This document shows, in pieces, positions 1,701 to 21,310 of a stretch of DNA of 64,000 nucleotides (positions are counted from its first letter, which is position 1; every line of letters begins with the position of its first letter). Location: contig CAWEQH010000008.1 in the NCBI GenBank assembly GCA_963811165.1, forward strand, positions 1 to 64,000, read 5' to 3'. The translations under genes were made by a program, and so were the position numbers. Below the pieces are notes generated by a model. That model did not search any database, was not told the DNA's origin, and saw nothing but the letters and a program-made list of their open reading frames with translations. The DNA comes from an uncultured Nitrospiraceae bacterium. GTDB lineage: Bacteria; Nitrospirota; Thermodesulfovibrionia; Thermodesulfovibrionales; UBA6898.

Positions 1701-1720
1701 TTACCCAAAAAGGTGAGTAA
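1701..1720. promoter_or_regulatory. Palindromic operator 1, TTACCCA-N6-TGAGTAA
   Basis: Inverted repeat just upstream of the -35 box; second copy at 1756-1775. Confidence 0.7.
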
Positions 1721-1727
1721 TTTTTCA

Positions 1728-1756
1728 TTGACAGCGGTCCTGCGTTAAGCTATAAT
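1728..1756 (+). promoter_or_regulatory. Sigma70 promoter TTGACA-N17-TATAAT
   Basis: Perfect consensus hexamers with a 17-nt spacer upstream of the HTH gene. Confidence 0.85.
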
Positions 1757-1775
1757 TACTCAACAGTTTGGGTAA
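1756..1775. promoter_or_regulatory. Palindromic operator 2, TTACTCA-N6-TGGGTAA
   Basis: Same half-sites and spacing as operator 1; overlaps the -10 box and predicted start site. Confidence 0.7.
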
Positions 1776-1811
1776 CTTTGTTAAACTTTGAAAGGAGAAA
1801 GGAGGAAAAGC

Positions 1812-2147
1812 ATGACGTTCGGGCAAGTCTTCAAAAATGCACGGAAGAATGCAGGGAAGACTTTGCGGGAGGCAGCCGAACTCGTGGGGATGACGATTGG
1901 AAATATTTCGGACATTGAACACAGTCGCCGGAGGCCCCCCAAAAAGGAGATCTTACAGGAATTTGAAGAATTTTACGGGGTGAAAAAGAACACTCTCGTT
2001 AAGGCAGCGGAAAAGGAACTGAAAATGCCGGGCGAAGCAGTATCTATTTATTCCAAGAGACCGGAGCTCACGATGTCATTGCTTCGGTTTGCTGAAAGTC
2101 GTTCGGAAGAAGAATTAAGACGGATATTGAAAAAACATGGAGGGTAA
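1812..2147 (+). CDS. XRE-family helix-turn-helix repressor (CapH/ImmR-like)
   Basis: FGQVFKNARKNAGKTLREAAELVGMTIGNISDIEHSRRRPP; AGGAGG RBS before ATG 1812. Confidence 0.85.
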   Translation: MTFGQVFKNARKNAGKTLREAAELVGMTIGNISDIEHSRRRPPKKEILQEFEEFYGVKKNTLVKAAEKELKMPGEAVSIYSKRPELTMSLLRFAESRSEEELRRILKKHGG

Positions 2148-2154
2148 AGTATAA

Positions 2155-2730
2155 GTGGTTAAATTCCCCGGCAAGAGCAGGAAGGAAATAGAAATGTTCG
2201 CTTCTGATATCGTCAGAGCATTCCAGCCTGCAGTACTTGAGGGAGAGGAGCCTTTTAACATTGATCGCTTTATCGAAGTCGTGGAGACGGAGATGGAGAT
2301 AGACTTCGATTTCACAAGCGATCTGCCGTCAGGGGTGCACGGTTGCACTTCAATAATAGACAACAAGGTATTGATTCTTTCTGAACTCTCCGATGATCCC
2401 GGCAACATAAGGTATCTGCGGTCAACAGTAGCCCATGAAACAGGGCATGTGTTATATCATCTGCCGATACTTAGGCGGTTGTGCACCGATAAGACCTTCA
2501 CGCAGAAGAAAGCCGAAAGCAAGAACTTTAGCCTTTATTCGCAGAAGCCGGTGAAGGCATACGAGGATCCGGAGTGGCAGGCATGGGAATTCGCAGGATC
2601 CCTTCTCATGCCCAAGATTGCCTTGGTCACGTTGAAGGAGAGGGGAGCGTCTGTCTATGAGATGGCTGACACTTTCATGGTAAACCAGGTTTTTGTAAAG
2701 AAGAGACTAAGGAATTTGAATATGACGTGA
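2155..2730 (+). CDS. ImmA/IrrE-family Zn metallopeptidase (CapP-like)
   Basis: RSTVAHETGH (HExxH) and EWQAWEFAGSLLMP motifs; follows the HTH gene. Confidence 0.9.
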   Translation: MVKFPGKSRKEIEMFASDIVRAFQPAVLEGEEPFNIDRFIEVVETEMEIDFDFTSDLPSGVHGCTSIIDNKVLILSELSDDPGNIRYLRSTVAHETGHVLYHLPILRRLCTDKTFTQKKAESKNFSLYSQKPVKAYEDPEWQAWEFAGSLLMPKIALVTLKERGASVYEMADTFMVNQVFVKKRLRNLNMT

Positions 2731-2743
2731 GTATATAAAAAAA

Positions 2744-2817
2744 ATTAAGCAAACTGCGCTAACAGTTTGCTTAATCTCCCATCATGGAAAGGATGGGAAT
2801 TGACCTTAAGGAAGGTC
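2744..2817 (+). other. Three tandem hairpins (terminator/attenuator or structured RNA)
   Basis: ATTAAGCAAACTG-cgctaa-CAGTTTGCTTAAT (13 bp perfect), TCCCATC-N8-GATGGGA and GACCTT-aagg-AAGGTC. Confidence 0.55.
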
Positions 2818-2896
2818 CGTTAGTTGATCATATTATCATACCACCCTTCCTCGATGTCAATAACAAAATCCAGATTCCGGAATGAGGTGAATGCCG

Positions 2897-3010
2897 GTGC
2901 TGAGAAAGCCAGGCAAAAGACTCATTTTCAGGGCATGGCGTCGTGCGTCCGATGGCAAGATTCTGTACGCCAAGGACTACGGGTTAAAGGCCTGGGCCCT
3001 GTGGGTCTGA
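2897..3010 (+). CDS. Small basic/aromatic protein, 37 aa (unannotated)
   Basis: GAGGTG RBS 7 nt before GTG; MLRKPGKRLIFRAWRRASDGKILYAKDYGLKAWALWV*. Confidence 0.6.
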   Translation: MLRKPGKRLIFRAWRRASDGKILYAKDYGLKAWALWV

Positions 3011-3111
3011 ACTGAAGATCTGGGGGGAAGAAATTCTCCCCTCATCCTCCGCTTCAGTGCTTGCCTGGTAGGGATAGGAGGAACAAACTACTACAAACAT
3101 AGGAGAATATT

Positions 3112-3342
3112 ATGAGTAAGAAAACGGTTCACGTGACTCCTCACGGAGATGACTGGCAGGTAAAGAAAAGCGGTAACGACAGGGCATCAACTGTTACATC
3201 AACGCAAAGAGAAGCCATTCAGGTTGGAAGGGACATGGCCAGGGAGATTGAAACGGAGTTTTTTATCCATGGGCGCAACGGACAGATCCGGGAAAGGGAC
3301 AGCTACGGGAACGATCCCTGTCCGCCTAAAGACAAACACTAA
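3112..3342 (+). CDS. DUF2188 family protein
   Basis: HVTPHGDDWQVKKSG...TQREAI..GR..A...IHGRNGQIRERDSYGNDPCPPKD; AGGAG RBS. Confidence 0.85.
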   Translation: MSKKTVHVTPHGDDWQVKKSGNDRASTVTSTQREAIQVGRDMAREIETEFFIHGRNGQIRERDSYGNDPCPPKDKH

Positions 3343-3416
3343 AAACCCGGGGCGTGTGGAGAGCACGCCCAACTTCTCATCGTGAAAAAGATTCCGATGT
3401 GGAAAGGAGCAATAGC

Positions 3417-3668
3417 ATGACGCACGAGAAAAAGACGGTTACAATCATCGTAGAGGGTACGCCACACGAGTGGCCAAAGGATGAAATCAGTTATGCGGAA
3501 GTGGTTACCCTCGAAGTGCCAAACTACGCAGAGCATCCTGAAATCACGTATTCCGTGAAGTATAAAAACGGCCACGGCCAAAAGCCTGAAGGAATCCTCT
3601 CCCCAGGGGATTCAGTAAAAGTAAAGGAGGGGATGATTTTCAGTGTTTCAGAAACTGGTCAGTCATAA
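3417..3668 (+). CDS. Ubiquitin-like (multiubiquitin-domain family) protein
   Basis: VTIIVEGTPHEW..DEISYAEVV...YSVKY...EGILSPGDSVKVKEGMIFSVSETGQS; AAGGAG RBS; directly upstream of E2-E1. Confidence 0.8.
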   Translation: MTHEKKTVTIIVEGTPHEWPKDEISYAEVVTLEVPNYAEHPEITYSVKYKNGHGQKPEGILSPGDSVKVKEGMIFSVSETGQS

Positions 3669-4839
3669 CGAAGACATAAGGCGTTTGGTCGATAAAGGTT
3701 ATGCTGTTGCCTTCGACAGCAATTGCATGGTGGTACGTGACATTCCTTATTTGAACGGTCAAAAGGAATTGCAAATCGGCGCAATAGTCACGAAACTCGT
3801 GTTTGTGGACCATGAGCGCGTCACGCAGGACGACCACCAGATTTTCTTTGCTGGGGGTGTCCCTCATAATCTCGACGGAACGCCTATCCCCAATCTCGGT
3901 GGCGGGCCCGCTCAGCTTTTGCTGGGCGAGGCCTGCAAAGACGTCATCGTGCAATGTTCATTTTCGAACAAGCCGAAACCCGATGGGAATTTTGTTGCTT
4001 TCAATGATTTTTTTGACAAAATTGAAAGCTACGTCGGCATAATCTCCGGGCCAGCAATAGCATTGCATAACGCAAACCCTTACACATTCCGTGCAGTAAA
4101 GGAGGTGATATCCGACTCAGTGTTTAAATTTAACGACACTCTGACGAGCCGCGCAGAAATCACTGACCTGGCTGCGAAGTTTAAGAACGATGTGATTGCG
4201 GTAATAGGCCTCGGCGGCACAGGCGCATACGCTCTTGACTTCCTTGTGAAGACGCCGGCGAAAGAGATTCGGACTTTTGACCACGATGATTACCATGTGC
4301 ACACGGCCTTTCGTTCACCAGGAAGACTTGAACCCGCTGAACTTGGCAAAAAGAAAGCAGAGGTCTATTTTTCACGTTACGAGAATTTCAGGGCGGGATT
4401 GTCATTCTCACCGAAATTTCTTGATAACTCGTGCAGTGAGGACCTCGACGGAGTGACCTTCGCTTTCGTGTGTGTGGACAAAGGCACGTCTCGGGCCGGT
4501 ATTTTTGATCTCCTCATTTCCAAGGGTATCCCATTCATTGATGTGGGGATGGGCCTCAACCGTAAAAGAGGGTCGATCAATGGCCAGTTGCGTATAACCT
4601 ATTACTCTCAAGAGCACGGCGAGAATATACGCGGTAAAGGGCTGGCACCGCTTACTGACAATCCTGATGATGTATACAAGACAAACATTCAAATCAGTGA
4701 GCTTAACGCTCTCAACGCATGTTTGGCTGTCATTAGGTTTAAACAGCTACGCGGCTTCTATTTCGAAGAAATCCCCAGTTACCATCTTCTTTTCGAGATA
4801 GGCGATCTTAAGATAGTCGGTGAGGCTGATCGGCAATGA
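3643..4839 (+). CDS. E2-like (DUF6791) plus ThiF/E1-like adenylyltransferase fusion
   Basis: N-terminal LVSHNEDIRRLVDKGY...SFSNKP...DKIESY; C-terminal VIGLGGTGAY, RSPG, KKAE, FVCVDK, IPFIDVGMG. Confidence 0.85.
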   Translation: MFQKLVSHNEDIRRLVDKGYAVAFDSNCMVVRDIPYLNGQKELQIGAIVTKLVFVDHERVTQDDHQIFFAGGVPHNLDGTPIPNLGGGPAQLLLGEACKDVIVQCSFSNKPKPDGNFVAFNDFFDKIESYVGIISGPAIALHNANPYTFRAVKEVISDSVFKFNDTLTSRAEITDLAAKFKNDVIAVIGLGGTGAYALDFLVKTPAKEIRTFDHDDYHVHTAFRSPGRLEPAELGKKKAEVYFSRYENFRAGLSFSPKFLDNSCSEDLDGVTFAFVCVDKGTSRAGIFDLLISKGIPFIDVGMGLNRKRGSINGQLRITYYSQEHGENIRGKGLAPLTDNPDDVYKTNIQISELNALNACLAVIRFKQLRGFYFEEIPSYHLLFEIGDLKIVGEADRQ

Positions 4840-5233
4840 AGATTGAGACTCAGAACGCGTTCATTTCATGCCGAAGGACCTGAAGCCTGGGGTGCTTTAT
4901 GTTTCAGAGGAATTTGGGGCTGCAGCACACCTATGTCCATGCGGCTGCGGTACCAAAATCAGGACACCCTTGGGACCAACTGATTGGTCTATTGAGGTAG
5001 CAGCCAGGGGACCTACTCTTCACCCTTCCGTGGGAAATTGGCAGCAGCCTTGTCAATCGCACTACGTGATATATAAAGGCGAAATTATATGGTGCAAGAA
5101 GTGGTCACGCGAACAAATTGCTGCGGGCCGACGCCTCGAAGAAGGGCATCGACGTGTGTACTATGCTGGACTTGATCGTCATCATCGCGGCGCTTTACGA
5201 AGGCTCTGGCATTGGATAAAGGAGCTCATTTAA
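4836..5233 (+). CDS. DUF6527 family protein (putative Ubl-processing peptidase)
   Basis: PGVLYVSEEFGAAAHLCPCGCG, PTLHPSVGNWQQPCQSHY. The ATG at 4836 overlaps the E1 stop and is 2 nt out of frame with the ORF from 4868 (probable indels; restores MKIRLERVHF). Confidence 0.8.
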
Positions 5234-5354: not shown

Positions 5355-5660
5355 ATGGCACGTCGTCGTCAGTCGGGGACAGGGGATCTCTTTGATCAGC
5401 TGTTTGATGCACTCTTTGAGTTAACTGGGTTGTTCTGGCAAGTCGGTGCTTTCGTAACTGCACTCCTCGTAATTATTGCCCTCCTAGCTCTGCGGTGGGT
5501 GATTGCCCAAAATGCGGAACTTGCGGCTTCTCCATTGCTTGGTCGCCTGCCAGAATCGTATGGCTGGTTACTTTATCTGCTGCCGTTTACGCTTCTTGCG
5601 GTCGCATGGCTCTTCGGGAAAAAGACATATCACGTATATCGTGAGCAAAAACATTTTTAG
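5355..5660 (+). CDS. Two-TM membrane protein of unknown function
   Basis: AAGGAGG RBS; two hydrophobic segments. Confidence 0.65.
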   Translation: MARRRQSGTGDLFDQLFDALFELTGLFWQVGAFVTALLVIIALLALRWVIAQNAELAASPLLGRLPESYGWLLYLLPFTLLAVAWLFGKKTYHVYREQKHF

Positions 5661-5962
5661 CTACCACTTGAGAAACGAAAGAGTAATAACAGCCTGCGCG
5701 TGACAGGGGACAAAGTGCGTATCCATCTTCGGCACAGTATCACAGGTTAGTAGCGGAAATCGACGACCCTGAGAATCTGTCTCTTCTGCGGGTTATCAGT
5801 CAAAGCCGCGCTGGCACATCCTCAGAGAAACCGAGACCGGCTGCTTGACTGATCATGGTGCTGTTTATTTTTGGAAATGCTCAGGGGCCGTTTACCGAGT
5901 CCGCCGACAAACAGAGAGGCCTTTTTGAGCGAAACTATTGCGGATCACGAGGTGCATCTGAT

Positions 5963-6021
5963 GCGTAAAGCTCCGGTTCAGGGGTAGTCGCAGCGGACCC
6001 GTCCGCTGCAACCAGTTAGCC
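5963..6021 (-). repeat. Degenerate integron attC-like site
   Basis: Minus strand GGCTAAC-tggTTGCAGcggac...CTGAAccggagc-TTTACGC, just after the helicase stop and at the GC-content boundary. Confidence 0.45.
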
Positions 6022-6043
6022 CGCAGGCGCGCATGGCTGCACG

Positions 6044-8523
<2,480 letters not shown>

Positions 8524-8527
<4 letters not shown>

Positions 8528-10202
8528 GTAGATGCGCGGCCGGGCCTCCGGCTTGGGCGCAAGGATTTCCTCGATGGTCTTACTCATCGTCGCATCGCTC
8601 GCGGTCCATCGGGTCGGATCATGCTGTCTCGATGAACGCGATCTCGTCCTTCGTGAGGCCGTATTTCTCGTAGAGCGTCGTCGTCCGTCCACGTCTCGGT
8701 TCCAGTCTGCAGTCGGCACGAAGGCGTAGACGTCGCGCGTGGCGTGCTTGAGTGATCTTGCGCAGCGAGACGAGGAAGCGAACAAACCGCGTGCGCAGGT
8801 ACGACTGCAAGACTCTCAGCCTCGCTTCTCGGAGTCGAAACGGCCGAGCAACGAGATAGGTCTCGAGTGCAGACGGTGCCGGGCTCGGCGATGAACGGCT
8901 TGCCGAGAACTTGGTGTCGGCATCGTCGTCGCCGCGTGCCCTGGACGGCCTGCGGCACAAGCACCTTCCACTTGTCGATGCAGATCTGCGTTCTTGGCGA
9001 TTGCCTCGCGCTCGATGTAGCCGACGTCGCGCTTCCGCTTCGGATGCAGTAGAGCGCAATCTTGCCGCTCGCTCGCTTCTCGGTCGACGCCCTCGAAGTT
9101 CGTGCGCAAGCCGAACGGCTTGTCACGGCTGAGACACGCTGTTCGAGCGACGGCTCGCTTCTTGCGCTCAGAACCTTCTCGCAGGATCGACACCGCCTCG
9201 TTGTCGCGAACGAACACGTCGTACTCGTCGAGGTAGCGCGCGACTGGCTGGCCGATGACTTCGCCATCCTCGAATCGTCGTGACCTCGCACGGCCCGTTG
9301 ATGTCCGCGATCCCAGAGGAAGTAGCAGACGCCGCCCTTGAATCTCACCCCGGGAAACACCTCGTCGAGCTTTGGGTAGTCGACGAGTTGCGCGCATGCG
9401 CTTGTCGGTGAGCATCGACTCGCGGAACTCGTCCAGCCCCTTGCCACCGGCCAACCAGCGCGACGGGAATGACCATCGACAGGTAGCGCGGCTCGAGCTC
9501 CTTCGCTTGCTCCACGAACAGCTGGTAGATCGGCGCTGCGCTCGTGCCGCAGCCGCCGCTCGTCCAACTGGTACGGCGGGTTGCCGATGATCACGTCGAA
9601 CTGCATATCGCCTCCAAACAACTCGGCAACCCGAGTCTTGATGTCGTCGGTGTGAATGAACGCATAGGCGTGGGTTTCAAGCCCTTCGCCGCGGTCGAAG
9701 CGTCTTCTGGCTTGCCCCGCAGTACGTGCACTTGCCGTCCACCCACGTGTGCTCCATGCGCTCGAACCAGATGTTGCCATCGTCGCTGGCGAAGCCCTTG
9801 GCGATGGAGTGCTTGCCCTTGGCGTGCTTCGAGCAATACACGCTGCGCCGCGCCAGCAGGCTGGTGAGATACGTGATGCCGATGCCGAACACCTGCTTCG
9901 TCAGGATGTGATCGACGCGCTCCTCAAGGTTCGGAATCTCGTCCGCCAGCCCCTTGGTGAGGCGGCTGGTGATCTCGCGCAGGAACACGCCCGACTTCGT
10001 GCACGGGTCGAGGAACTTCACCGTCTTGTCCGCCCAGATGTTCGCGCCGCCGTTGTCGGCCGCCCACGCCTCGGCCAGCGTGTCCAGCATCCGGTTCGCG
10101 AACTCCGGCGGCGTGAACACCTCGTCGTTGGAGAGGTTCGCGATGCACGTCAGCACATCCGGGTTGCGGCCGCGCAGCGCAAAGCTGGCCTGCGTCGCTC
10201 AT
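8524..10202 (-). CDS. Eco57I-like N6-adenine methyltransferase with C-terminal target-recognition region, frameshifted
   Basis: LSNDEVFTPP, FLDPCTKSGVF, FDVIIGNPPY, YLRTRFVRFLV; ATGA overlaps with neighbours. Confidence 0.8.
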
Positions 10203-10854
10203 GCGGCCTCCTTCGGTGCTGCCGAGCGCGGCGGCGGCCAGCTCGCTCACCGTCATCGGCGGGTAGGTCTTGGTCGGCGTGAAGATCTCGTGCTTGCCGA
10301 GGTGGGCGAAGAGCGAACCCTCCGCGCTGAAGGCCGACGAGTGGGTGAGAGCGTCGAAGCGGAAGTCGCGCCGCTGGAACTTGCCCTTGCCCAGGTAGCC
10401 CCACTCGGCAAAGGTGATCGGCTGGCCGTCATGGGTGCGCATCGTCAGCGCGTCGCCGTGCACGAGGTTCTGCGACAGCACGTAGGACGCGGCGCGATAG
10501 AGGTCGTCCGACTCGATCGAGGTTCAGATACTCGGCGAAGATCTCCAGCATGTTCGCGCGGCACTCGGCGATGTTGTCCGCCAGCAGCTCGATGCCGTAG
10601 ATGCACATCAGCGCGAGCAGCGCGTAGTGCCGCTTCTCGAAATCGGACTTGCCGTACTTGAGTTCGACGGCGGCGAGCTTGCGCTGCAGGATCTGGACGA
10701 GGAAGTTGCCGCTCCCGCACGCCGGCTCCAGGAAGCGGGAGTCAATGCGCTCGGTCTCGTCCTTGACGAGGTCGAGCATCGCCTCGACCATCCACGCCGG
10801 GGTGAAGACCTCCCCGTGGTCGGCGACGCGTTGCTTTGACTTGACGTAGTTCAT
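10199..10854 (-). CDS. Short methyltransferase-like subunit (SAM-binding motif, no NPPY seen)
   Basis: VKSKQRVADHGEVFTP, FLEPACGSGNF, IYGIEL, NLVHGDAL; indel near 10515. Confidence 0.75.
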
Positions 10855-11845
10855 GGGCCGGTGCATTTCTGGCTTTGCTTCATTATATTTATTGCGGCTA
10901 ACATTCCATCTTGTGCAGACTCTGCTTTTTGTAGATCCGTCTGTCGCCAGAGGCTTCATATATCGTAACCCTTCGGTAAAAATCGCACGGGTTTGCCCCT
11001 TTTATTCGGCATAATGTCGTACAAGTATGTATTATACAAATTCTTTGAAATTATGGCCGTTCTATTATTGCGAGCGAGACTGCCGCGACAATTATATCCT
11101 GTTTTGCCGAGCATATATGAAGATATGTCCCTCCTGAAACCATTTTCCCCTTCGAGATGCTGCTATTTTATACTCCCTTCATGACGCCGCAGTCAAGTAG
11201 AACGTATTGATTCTCGACTGTATTCCTCAGGCCGGTTGATAAGGAATTGAAAAACATATTTCTCAGTTATTTTGGGTAATTGAGAAAAATTACCATCTCA
11301 GCCTATTGCGCAGTATCAGGTGTTCATCGCAAAATTGCTTCCTCACAGAACACCGCAAAAGATTCGATTCGCGATAACTGAGGAGTAGGCCCCATAACTT
11401 TACGGTTCGCCTACGCTCTGATATCTCGCTAACGGTGAGAGAAGTATAAGGTCCTTATTTTCTCCAGCGTGAATTTCTGGAAGAATCCTTCATCGATAAC
11501 TGACTAAAAAGAAACATGGGGACATTTTCAACGATCGGTGCGGTTAACACCGACTCCTCAGAGGAGATATGCGATAGCGGTCATGGGTTTTATCGGCCTG
11601 TGGATATTCTACGGCATCGCGCGCCTCGCGCTATGGTTCCAGGGGAAGGATTCGGAGGGGCGGCCGAAGGCAAGGAAGAAATGAGCGGCGCGGCAGGTCC
11701 CGCATTTGTGCAACGGGCCGTTGCACTATTATAGGTCGCGGGGACGGGGGGAGAGCGCGGAACATTTCCCCGAGCGGAAACTCGGCCGTCCGGCTAAAAG
11801 CTCGTGCTTGAAGTCCAAGGAGCTATAGGGATAATATATTTCGGC

Positions 11846-12852
11846 ATGCAAACGTCAACCAAGGATATTATCCGGACCGTCGTGTCGGGCTTGTTTCTGA
11901 TCACGCCCGCCCTGGTGATGGCCGTTTGCGTGGTGGCCATCGACGCCGTTCAAAGGCGAATGAACCGAAAACGCAAGAATCCCCTCACCGAAAAGAGGCT
12001 TCTGCGCGCTCCCGGACAGGGGCTTTCGGAGCGCGCTGACGACGCCCAGTTTAAGGTCATGGAAACCATATTCCTCTGGTGCGTCATACCGACGATGCTA
12101 TATCTGGCGCTCATGTCGCCACTGGTCTCTCTCAAGGCATTCTCCGTTCTGTTGGTCGCAATGGCGGTGGCGTGCGCCGCCTGCGCGTACGGAGCCGAGA
12201 GGGCCTTTTCGATGCTGAAGCGGATTACAAATGACCGGCTGGGCTGCGAAGGCGAGCGCTTCGTCGGACAGGAGCTTGACGAACTCATGCTCGACGGATA
12301 CAGGGTGTACCATGACATCCAGGCGGGGCACTTCAACATCGACCACGCGGTCGTCGGTCCGGCCGGAGTGTTTGCCGTAGAAACGAAGACGAGATCGAAG
12401 CACGACTCCGCCGAGGGGGGAGAAGCGGTCAAGGTAATATATAGCGGGGACTTCATATATTTTCCGCAATGGGGAAAATCGAAGGGATGGACAGACACGC
12501 GCGCAACGGAGCAGGCCAGGACAAACGCAAAATGGCTTGCAAAAAGACTCTCCGAAAGCACAGGGCGCGACGTCAAGGTATTTCCGGTCGTTGCAGTGCC
12601 CGGCTGGTTCACCAGGAAGTATTCCGAGGAGGAAGACGGAAACAAAGGTCTTGCCCACCTTATAAGCAAGGAAACGGAGAAGCCGAACCCGATCGTCTAC
12701 AACGGGGAGAATCCTAGGCTCATACTTCCGAAGTGCGGTCTGTTCCGGAATAAATGGCTTTCAGCGAGGAAATAGACTCTATAGCTCACCAGATGGAACA
12801 GCTCTGTTCCGTGGAGCCCTCCACACTCAATAAGAAGAAAATCTCCGATTGA
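11846..12852 (+). CDS. Membrane-anchored NERD-domain nuclease
   Basis: Three TM segments, then GCEGERFV, YHDI, NIDHAVVGPAGVFAVETKT; probable indel near 12760 extends it to 12852. Confidence 0.8.
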
Positions 12853-20425: not shown

Positions 20426-20608
20426 TGTGTTGACCTATAGCAAAGCAAAAGGATTATTGAGTCATTATAGATGAGCTCCGCTAACTTTGCTCTCCCGGTT
20501 CAGCAGGACCTTGCAACCGGCTTTTTTCTCAGCGAGATGATGGGATGATTTGTTGTTTTTAACTGTAGTAAAATTGTAGTAGTTTTCTGCGATTTATACG
20601 GATTTGGC
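20412..20608. repeat. Direct repeat copy 1 (~197 bp)
   Basis: Near-identical to 21336-21531, differing only at gatttgttgt versus gattgccgt. Confidence 0.95.
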
Positions 20609-20626
20609 TATTCCAATAATATTAGC

Positions 20627-20645
20627 ATTGGTATATAATACCAAT
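20627..20645. promoter_or_regulatory. Palindrome ATTGGTAT-N3-ATACCAAT over a TATAAT box (TA autoregulation site)
   Basis: Perfect 8-bp inverted repeat ~10 nt upstream of the toxin ATG. Confidence 0.55.
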
Positions 20646-20654
20646 AGACTACTT

Positions 20655-20945
20655 ATGAGGGCGGACCTAATCAGGCACAATAAGATTATTGATGAGATGG
20701 GAAACATCGTTGAGATCAAGCTGTGGCATCTCTTTAAGCCTACGCCAGACAAGCCTCACGGCTTTAAATATTCTTTGGTTTATATTGTTGGGAATAAGAG
20801 GATTATTGGCTATGATAACTCAGAAGGAAAGGGAGATCACAGGCATGTTAAAGACTTTGTTGAGCCTTACCGCTTTACAAGTCTCGAAAAATTATCTGAG
20901 GATTTCAAACAGGATATTGAACGTTACAAAAGGGGTGTGTTATGA
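20655..20945 (+). CDS. DUF6516/TumE-like toxin
   Basis: IVEIKLW...PHGFKYSLVY...IGYDNSEGKGDHRH; ATGA overlap with the antitoxin. Confidence 0.8.
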   Translation: MRADLIRHNKIIDEMGNIVEIKLWHLFKPTPDKPHGFKYSLVYIVGNKRIIGYDNSEGKGDHRHVKDFVEPYRFTSLEKLSEDFKQDIERYKRGVL

Positions 20946-21310
20946 GAGCAAAGAAGATCATTAGGATACAGATTCGAAGTGTCGATGAAGCTCTTGCAGA
21001 TTTCGTTAGTACTGCCGAGTCTATCAAGAATGGCCAGAAAATCCAAAAAGAAACGGGTGTTTACTTTGCGTCTTTAGAGGCTTTTCGTAAAGCGATCACT
21101 CCTAAGCGAATGCAATTGCTTCATACCATTAGAGCAGAAAAACCTTCTTCGCTTCATGAACTTGCAAAACTGCTGAATCGAGATATAAAAAATGTCTCTG
21201 ATGATATTATTTTCTTAGAGCAAATAGGATTGATCGAGCGAAAACGATATGATAATAAAACTGCTCCTCGAAGCGCCTATGACGAAATGCAAGTAAAGAT
21301 TGCAATATAA
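20942..21310 (+). CDS. HTH antitoxin (HVO_A0114-like)
   Basis: YFASLEAFRKAITPKRMQLL...PSSLHELAKLLNRDIKNVSDD. Confidence 0.8.
   Translation: MRAKKIIRIQIRSVDEALADFVSTAESIKNGQKIQKETGVYFASLEAFRKAITPKRMQLLHTIRAEKPSSLHELAKLLNRDIKNVSDDIIFLEQIGLIERKRYDNKTAPRSAYDEMQVKIAI

Follow-up and report, generated by a model that had tools for sequence, protein, structure and literature searches.

Type II Bub operons carry genes for a ubiquitin-like protein (Ubl), an E2-E1 fusion and a DUF6527 protein, typically without a JAB peptidase (Ye et al., bioRxiv 10.1101/2024.11.21.623953). CapH/CapP, in turn, are a helix-turn-helix (HTH) protein and a peptidase encoded divergently from their operon, the peptidase bearing a GAF domain with a cysteine switch, and an association of HTH-peptidase pairs with DUF2188 and 6e operons is already on record (Lau et al., bioRxiv 10.1101/2022.04.27.489752). 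Here we describe an operon of the first kind, with a partial likeness to the second, in the genome of an uncultured Nitrospiraceae bacterium (assembly GCA_963811165.1), within positions 1 to 64,000 of contig CAWEQH010000008.1, the whole stretch being called the window. The operon spans positions 1701-5233, its seven open reading frames (ORFs) are all co-oriented on the plus strand, the region has a GC content of 46-49% and it starts 1.7 kb from the contig start. Our overall reading, to which we assign a probability of roughly 0.6, is that a Type II Bub operon (bubA, bubBD and bubE) lies behind a portable regulator head, which would combine a repressor-peptidase switch with an antisense-gated microprotein. 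The Bub core is already known, and the regulator head is the less familiar part. The features are the following.

1701..1720, no strand: O1, palindromic operator 5' of the -35 box, likely the site of the HTH protein.
1728..1756, plus strand: sigma-70-type promoter, consensus match 12/12, spacer of 17 nt.
1756..1775, no strand: O2, palindromic operator covering the predicted transcription start.
1812..2147, plus strand: XRE-type HTH protein of 111 aa (Pfam HTH_31 and HTH_3), likely an autorepressor.
2155..2730, plus strand: short M78 (ImmA/IrrE-like) zinc peptidase of 191 aa, DPEWQA subfamily (Peptidase_M78).
2735..2826, minus strand: predicted antisense RNA of ~90 nt with three hairpins, the 3' hairpin with 13-bp arms and a U run.
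2832..2860, minus strand: antisense sigma-70-type promoter, consensus match 11/12, at a position shared with relatives.
2897..3010, plus strand: basic, aromatic microprotein of 37 aa from a GTG (39 aa from the alternative ATG at 2891).
3112..3342, plus strand: DUF2188 protein of 76 aa (Pfam; PADLOC candidate PDC-S16).
3417..3668, plus strand: BubA, single-domain ubiquitin-like protein of 83 aa (PF14452, Multi_ubiq), last residue Ser83.
3643..4839, plus strand: BubBD, E2-E1 fusion of 398 aa (DUF6791 and ThiF), with H65, S108, K110, R224 and Y345 conserved.
4836..5233, plus strand: bubE, serine protease gene (DUF6527), with four cysteines and a Ser-His dyad; the start at 4836 is out of frame.

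A preliminary description of this DNA had listed a co-oriented set of HTH, HExxH peptidase, small ORF, DUF2188, Ubl, E2-E1 and DUF6527 genes, which is borne out by the ORF list and by Pfam, the small ORF being without a Pfam family match. The motifs it had singled out, namely ETGQS at the end of the Ubl, SFSNKP in the fusion and TLHPS and CQSH in the DUF6527 protein, are all present in the translations, and no JAB family match was found among the nine proteins scanned in or beside the operon, as it had stated. Concerning the stop/start overlaps reported across the last three genes, the one between the Ubl and E2-E1 genes exists (26 nt), whereas the one between E2-E1 and DUF6527 is not borne out in this assembly, the ATG at 4836 being out of the DUF6527 frame and the first in-frame ATG lying at 4868. 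Two elements had gone unmentioned: the pair of operators round a perfect sigma-70 promoter, and a structured leader with antisense signals that extends from the peptidase gene to the small ORF.

We are highly confident that the last three genes are a known Type II Bub operon with every catalytic residue named by Ye et al.; both domain order and catalytic residues fit this identity, as had been proposed. The closest described system is BubA-BubBD-BubE of E. coli ZDHYS365 (Type II, 6E.2/DUF6527), with which the locus shares the genes and their order, the lack of a JAB peptidase, a C-terminal serine on the Ubl, an E2 serine accompanied by lysine and histidine, the adenylation arginine and the crossover-loop tyrosine. 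As judged by eye from Table S2 in Ye et al., S108, K110, R224 and Y345 correspond to E. coli S106, K108, R219 and Y342, and H65 would be the histidine of their E2 site. Residues H65, S108, K110 and R224 are kept in 76/76 other full-length unique BubBD sequences and Y345 in 75/76, while no cysteine is invariant (the best-kept one occurs in 66/76 of the other full-length sequences); in the E2 domain Ser, Lys and His replace Cys, as in Type II Bub. BubE, read from the ATG at 4868, carries C23, C25, C27 and C62 together with the S54-H65 dyad, at spacing identical to that of the E. coli protein. The residues for oxyester-type catalysis and the Ser-His peptidase anticipated in the preliminary description are present. 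By homology the Ubl would adopt a beta-grasp fold, as it matches PF14452 (E 9e-18) and PDB 9cd2, the E. coli BubA (E 2e-5, aligned end to end). It differs from the latter in having one beta-grasp domain rather than three; single-domain Ubls make up 40% of those in Bub operons (bioRxiv 10.1101/2024.11.21.623966). The locus further departs from the E. coli operon in that the bubE start is frameshifted as assembled and that an HTH-M78-microprotein-DUF2188 head precedes the operon. No viral relatives of BubBD were found in the search.

The head begins with O1 and O2, which are the sole two matches in the 3.66-Mb genome to a pattern derived from O1 and O2 themselves, the reversed-pattern control giving 1 site. 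A similar repeat pair flanks a promoter-like sequence in the viral locus L133. Scanning revealed no plus-strand promoter from the HTH gene to the bubA start, and no plus-strand terminator before bubBD. The HTH protein gives a weak match to capH (E 4e-7). In the M78 peptidase, H94-E95-H98 and E140, the third ligand (Glu), are invariant; the protein has no GAF match and no invariant cysteine, and the capP profile aligned solely over positions 22-115 of 242. The earlier comparison of this pair with CapH/CapP stands as far as an HTH protein and an HExxH metallopeptidase with a third Glu are encoded 5' of a putative defence operon, a likeness that extends to ImmR/ImmA. It fails in other respects: the pair is co-oriented rather than divergent, the peptidase, of 191 aa, belongs to a distinct DPEWQA subfamily without GAF match or invariant cysteine, and a microprotein gene with antisense signals comes next. 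The classical CapH/CapP label is ruled out by orientation and domain content. By analogy, the pair probably works like ImmR/ImmA, and we regard repressor-peptidase control of the bub genes as fairly likely. DUF2188 in this setting is not new, given the link reported by Lau et al. We count the DUF2188 and 37-aa proteins as parts of the regulator head and leave them out of the Bub core.

The microprotein represents a real, conserved, multi-phylum family without a Pfam match. Among 1.84 billion representatives we obtained 45 matches, from which 3 long repeat proteins were dropped, and 37 of the remaining 42 sequences were aligned. Profile searches of four phylum samples gave positives in 9/300, 4/301, 4/301 and 1/301 genomes (E <= 1e-4 in the first sample, 1e-6 in the other three). 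The 38 members searched against libraries yielded no credible Pfam match and one unnamed PHROG (4/38); there was no PDB match below E 0.06, and the Atlas clusters are all unnamed. The gene is unannotated in both plasmid records that carry it. In viral loci the microprotein comes next after the peptidase in 11/26 cases, one of them a weak match, and splitting these loci by the EWQA motif places it there in 9/11 with the motif and 2/15 without. Single-protein searches found it after the peptidase in L133 and, weakly, in L136, not in L132, L134 or L138, L137 being cut off.

The cargo that follows this head varies: it is Bub in the window, in L050 a BsuBI-type restriction system and in L136 a Prok-E2_E gene, and other copies lie at prophage ends by lysis genes. 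In L136 (1069-3265), the same head is followed by a 59-aa protein without a Pfam match, which we take to be DUF3892-like, and by one of 217 aa whose Prok-E2_E domain comes behind a possible Ubl. In L050 (1-5026), peptidase, microprotein and DUF2188 head the restriction system; 4 kb further on comes a Bub operon with another HTH-peptidase pair, this one divergent, in front of it. A DUF2188 gene lies directly downstream in 2/20 microprotein loci, most of which have flanks of just 1.5 kb. We also observed that the microprotein adjoins a 250-280 aa protein without a Pfam match in L012, L014 and L015, with N-termini alike by eye, and that a YjzC-like 61-aa gene occupies the DUF2188 slot before bubA in L003 (4505-4690) and L004 (about 4500-4690).

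The microprotein start is separated from the peptidase stop by a leader of 165-210 nt across loci, which folds strongly. In the window the fold of the whole leader has z = -4.7 and that of the predicted antisense RNA z = -8.2, and the minus strand carries a promoter matching 11/12 positions, with a hairpin and U run ~90 nt on. Among 24 leaders, an antisense promoter was detected in 12, a terminator in 15 and both in 8, compared with shuffle means of 0.7, 2.0 and 0 (maxima 4, 7 and 0 in 40 shuffles); the corresponding counts in 78 bubA upstream regions were 9, 9 and 0, and sense promoters appeared in 0/24 leaders. When 11 more viral leaders were scanned at the same settings, the counts were 5, 7 and 3 (shuffle means 0.8, 0.65 and 0.05; maxima 5, 3 and 1 in 60 shuffles). 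Rfam returned no match at E <= 5 in the leader, and two sub-threshold matches both fall outside it. Based on these signals, we lean slightly towards a predicted antisense RNA that is real and regulatory. A broader proposal, that HTH protein, DPEWQA peptidase, antisense RNA and microprotein make up an undescribed two-layer switch found in several phyla, with a soluble effector or toxin of 37-50 residues and varied cargo, is tentative, and we would put it at clearly less than an even chance. We found no description of the microprotein or of the RNA in the literature; subscription papers lay mostly outside the search, supplements were unsearched, and Burroughs and Aravind 2020 may mention the microprotein, so that with this narrow coverage the absence of a description argues weakly for novelty. 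The paper on Listeria ORF65 has no bearing here.

Taken together, these elements suggest how the locus might work. Binding of the HTH protein at O1 and O2, sites that are visible in the DNA, would close the promoter at 1728-1756. Upon stress, the M78 peptidase would cleave the HTH protein, by analogy to ImmA/ImmR, DNA damage being a mere family default for the trigger. The induced transcript would then cover the structured leader and, beyond it, the genes for the microprotein and DUF2188 as well as the bub genes, which are presumably co-transcribed, while the predicted cis-antisense RNA of ~90 nt would set a threshold on leaky transcript and thereby keep the microprotein off until induction. 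BubBD would adenylate BubA at Ser83 and transfer it to Tyr345 and on to Ser108 as oxyesters, then to a target lysine; the residues alone are seen here, and for the chemistry we draw on the orthologues of E. coli and Citrobacter. Following Ye et al., BubE would remove the tag from conjugates rather than mature BubA.

Several points weigh against this reading. The microprotein occurs within 3 kb upstream of 0/54 other Bub loci and DUF2188 at up to 3 kb upstream in 6/54 unique Bub loci, each with 2.5 kb or more of sequence on that side, the latter count being a lower bound from a single-sequence search; because of these counts, the regulator head may be a recent neighbour of this Bub operon. The peptidase lies directly upstream in only 5/20 microprotein loci, or 6 when a split gene is counted. 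As for the leaders, the set of 24 contains the loci that first suggested the pattern, its settings were picked after looking, some start codons were chosen by us, and the shuffles used 2-base blocks. For the 11 further leaders, the promoter count of 5/11 was matched by the highest of the 60 shuffles, and a sense promoter was present in 3/11 leaders as well. Alignment of six leaders with MAFFT gave a mean column identity of 40%, that is, no alignment at the sequence level. The bubE gene is frameshifted as assembled. Finally, no Bub operon protected E. coli against phage (Ye et al., bioRxiv 10.1101/2024.11.21.623953; PMC13373217), so that the label "defence" comes solely from gene context.

The main rival explanation, which we consider possible and rather unlikely, is that microprotein and antisense RNA form a module resembling type I toxin-antitoxin systems, which travels with the HTH-peptidase pair and has Bub as unrelated cargo. 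Like hok/Sok and SymE/SymR (PMC2887945), the locus combines a protein of <60 aa with a structured leader, a predicted cis-antisense RNA (here with its own promoter and terminator) and relatives at prophage ends. Indeed, an endolysin gene lies shortly upstream in the prophage loci L155, L156, L157 and L164, with a holin in three of them; moreover, 14 or 15 of the 20 microprotein loci have no peptidase directly upstream, and the distribution across the 54 other Bub loci points the same way. However, the microprotein is basic and, as read from the alignment, lacks the hydrophobic helix that most type I toxins have, although SymE is a precedent for a soluble one (PMC2887945). The leader also differs from those systems in having no Rfam match, and the predicted RNA is clear of the ribosome-binding site. 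The relative in L136 seems degenerate at its 3' end while its leader is kept, which speaks against this explanation as well.

Alternatively, there may be no antisense RNA, the signals being the arms of leader hairpins that act on the sense transcript as a cis attenuator or translation switch. In favour of this, a long sense hairpin in the window has the antisense -35 box as its 3' arm, and the leader as a whole folds strongly (z = -4.7). Against it stand a matching -10 box 16-18 nt away in 12/24 and 5/11 loci, and the U run, which lies on the antisense side in 15/24 leaders vs the sense side in 4/24. We hold a purely cis-acting hairpin to be unlikely, and somewhat more so than the toxin-antitoxin module.

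Regarding bubE, the ATG that overlaps the bubBD stop (4836) is two bases out of the DUF6527 frame, with two extra bases, near 4845 and 4851. The gene could be truly broken, in an operon that is decaying or works without a de-conjugating protease, and the window is alone among 82 loci in that no in-frame start is found 30-45 residues ahead of its Cys cluster. Nevertheless, the catalytic residues are all intact, and a related contig (~87% identical, depth 2.3, from a different strain) lacks the bases at both 4845 and 4851. Contig C8 (G000) is also rich in indels: 6/36 orthologous ORFs are frameshifted there vs 0/82 on four other contigs, in a comparison with 208 ORFs from two same-family genomes. 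Two of the six resemble opposite-strand shadow ORFs, and two of ~1370 aa are presumably RNA polymerase subunits. The window also has split genes for RNase E/G and for an aldo-keto reductase. No piece spanning the bubE start was present among the contigs listed for the first four public runs; no RNA run was listed among the public runs holding this sequence, which has no bearing on expression. The frameshift is likely an assembly error and a genuinely broken bubE improbable; split genes on this contig should not be taken as biology.

The tag itself ends in serine. A terminal Ser is found in 120/120 close homologues listed (of 2295 found), and in 99/99 loci with a visible end, 95 resolved by script and 4 from annotation. 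These belong to a survey of 101 loci (the window, 6 genome, 80 metagenome and 14 plasmid loci, 2 being cut off), whose counts contain duplicates, 89 being unique; since the metagenome loci were found by patterns at the bubA/bubBD overlap, the independent part consists of the plasmid loci, which come from four phyla. In 14/99 loci the residue at position -3 is not Gly and instead one of Asp, Ser, Asn, Val, Ile and Thr. In 95/95 resolved loci bubBD starts exactly 26 nt ahead of the bubA end, and the 14 plasmid records all have this overlap in their annotation. Within it the Ser codon is always TCN and the overlapping BubBD residue varies (His, Arg, Leu or Pro), from which we infer selection on Ser. 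The E. coli BubA ends in TDKS (Ye et al., bioRxiv 10.1101/2024.11.21.623953, PMC11601596), and E. coli BubBD with ATP alone gave an apparent BubA-BubA conjugate in vitro, the protease being absent (Ye et al.). These observations suggest that the Ser-ended tag is likely activated without trimming. The opposite version, given in the preliminary description, in which BubE would remove the two terminal residues so that Gly81 is exposed for activation, is very improbable and we reject it: Gly does occupy position -3 in 117/120 of the close homologues listed, and Citrobacter BubE cuts its Type I BubA behind the C-terminal Gly (Ye et al.), but the terminal Ser is invariant where the Gly two residues before it is not, and E. 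coli BubA, with Asp at -3, is conjugated without BubE (Ye et al.). The terms "C-terminal serine" and "S222" are absent from the main text of the Ye et al. preprint, whose journal version may discuss the Ser end, and no statement on it was found in the companion preprint (10.1101/2024.11.21.623966), as far as its accessible text goes, or in literature searches.

Around the operon, a divergent PDC-S39/DUF7380 candidate defence gene on the minus strand (2-1387) is cut by the contig start. After bubE, a gene for a 101-aa likely membrane protein without a family match (5355-5660, plus strand) is beside 0/88 other unique Bub loci. A block of 63-65% GC on the minus strand (5892-10959), with Eco57I and N6 methyltransferase matches and many broken frames, is probably a restriction-modification unit with assembly indels. 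Further on are a NERD nuclease gene (11804-12775) and a TumE-like/HVO_A0114 pair (20604-21310), and island-like genes extend to ~21.5 kb.

In conclusion, the invariant terminal Ser of BubA marks the residue that is likely activated, and departs from the Gly rule of ubiquitin-like tags. The microprotein belongs to a family that is easily overlooked, as its lack of annotation in both plasmid records illustrates. Bub operons conjugate proteins, their target and trigger are unreported and none has given phage protection; if the antisense-gated switch described here is real, it suggests conditions under which Bub activity might be sought.

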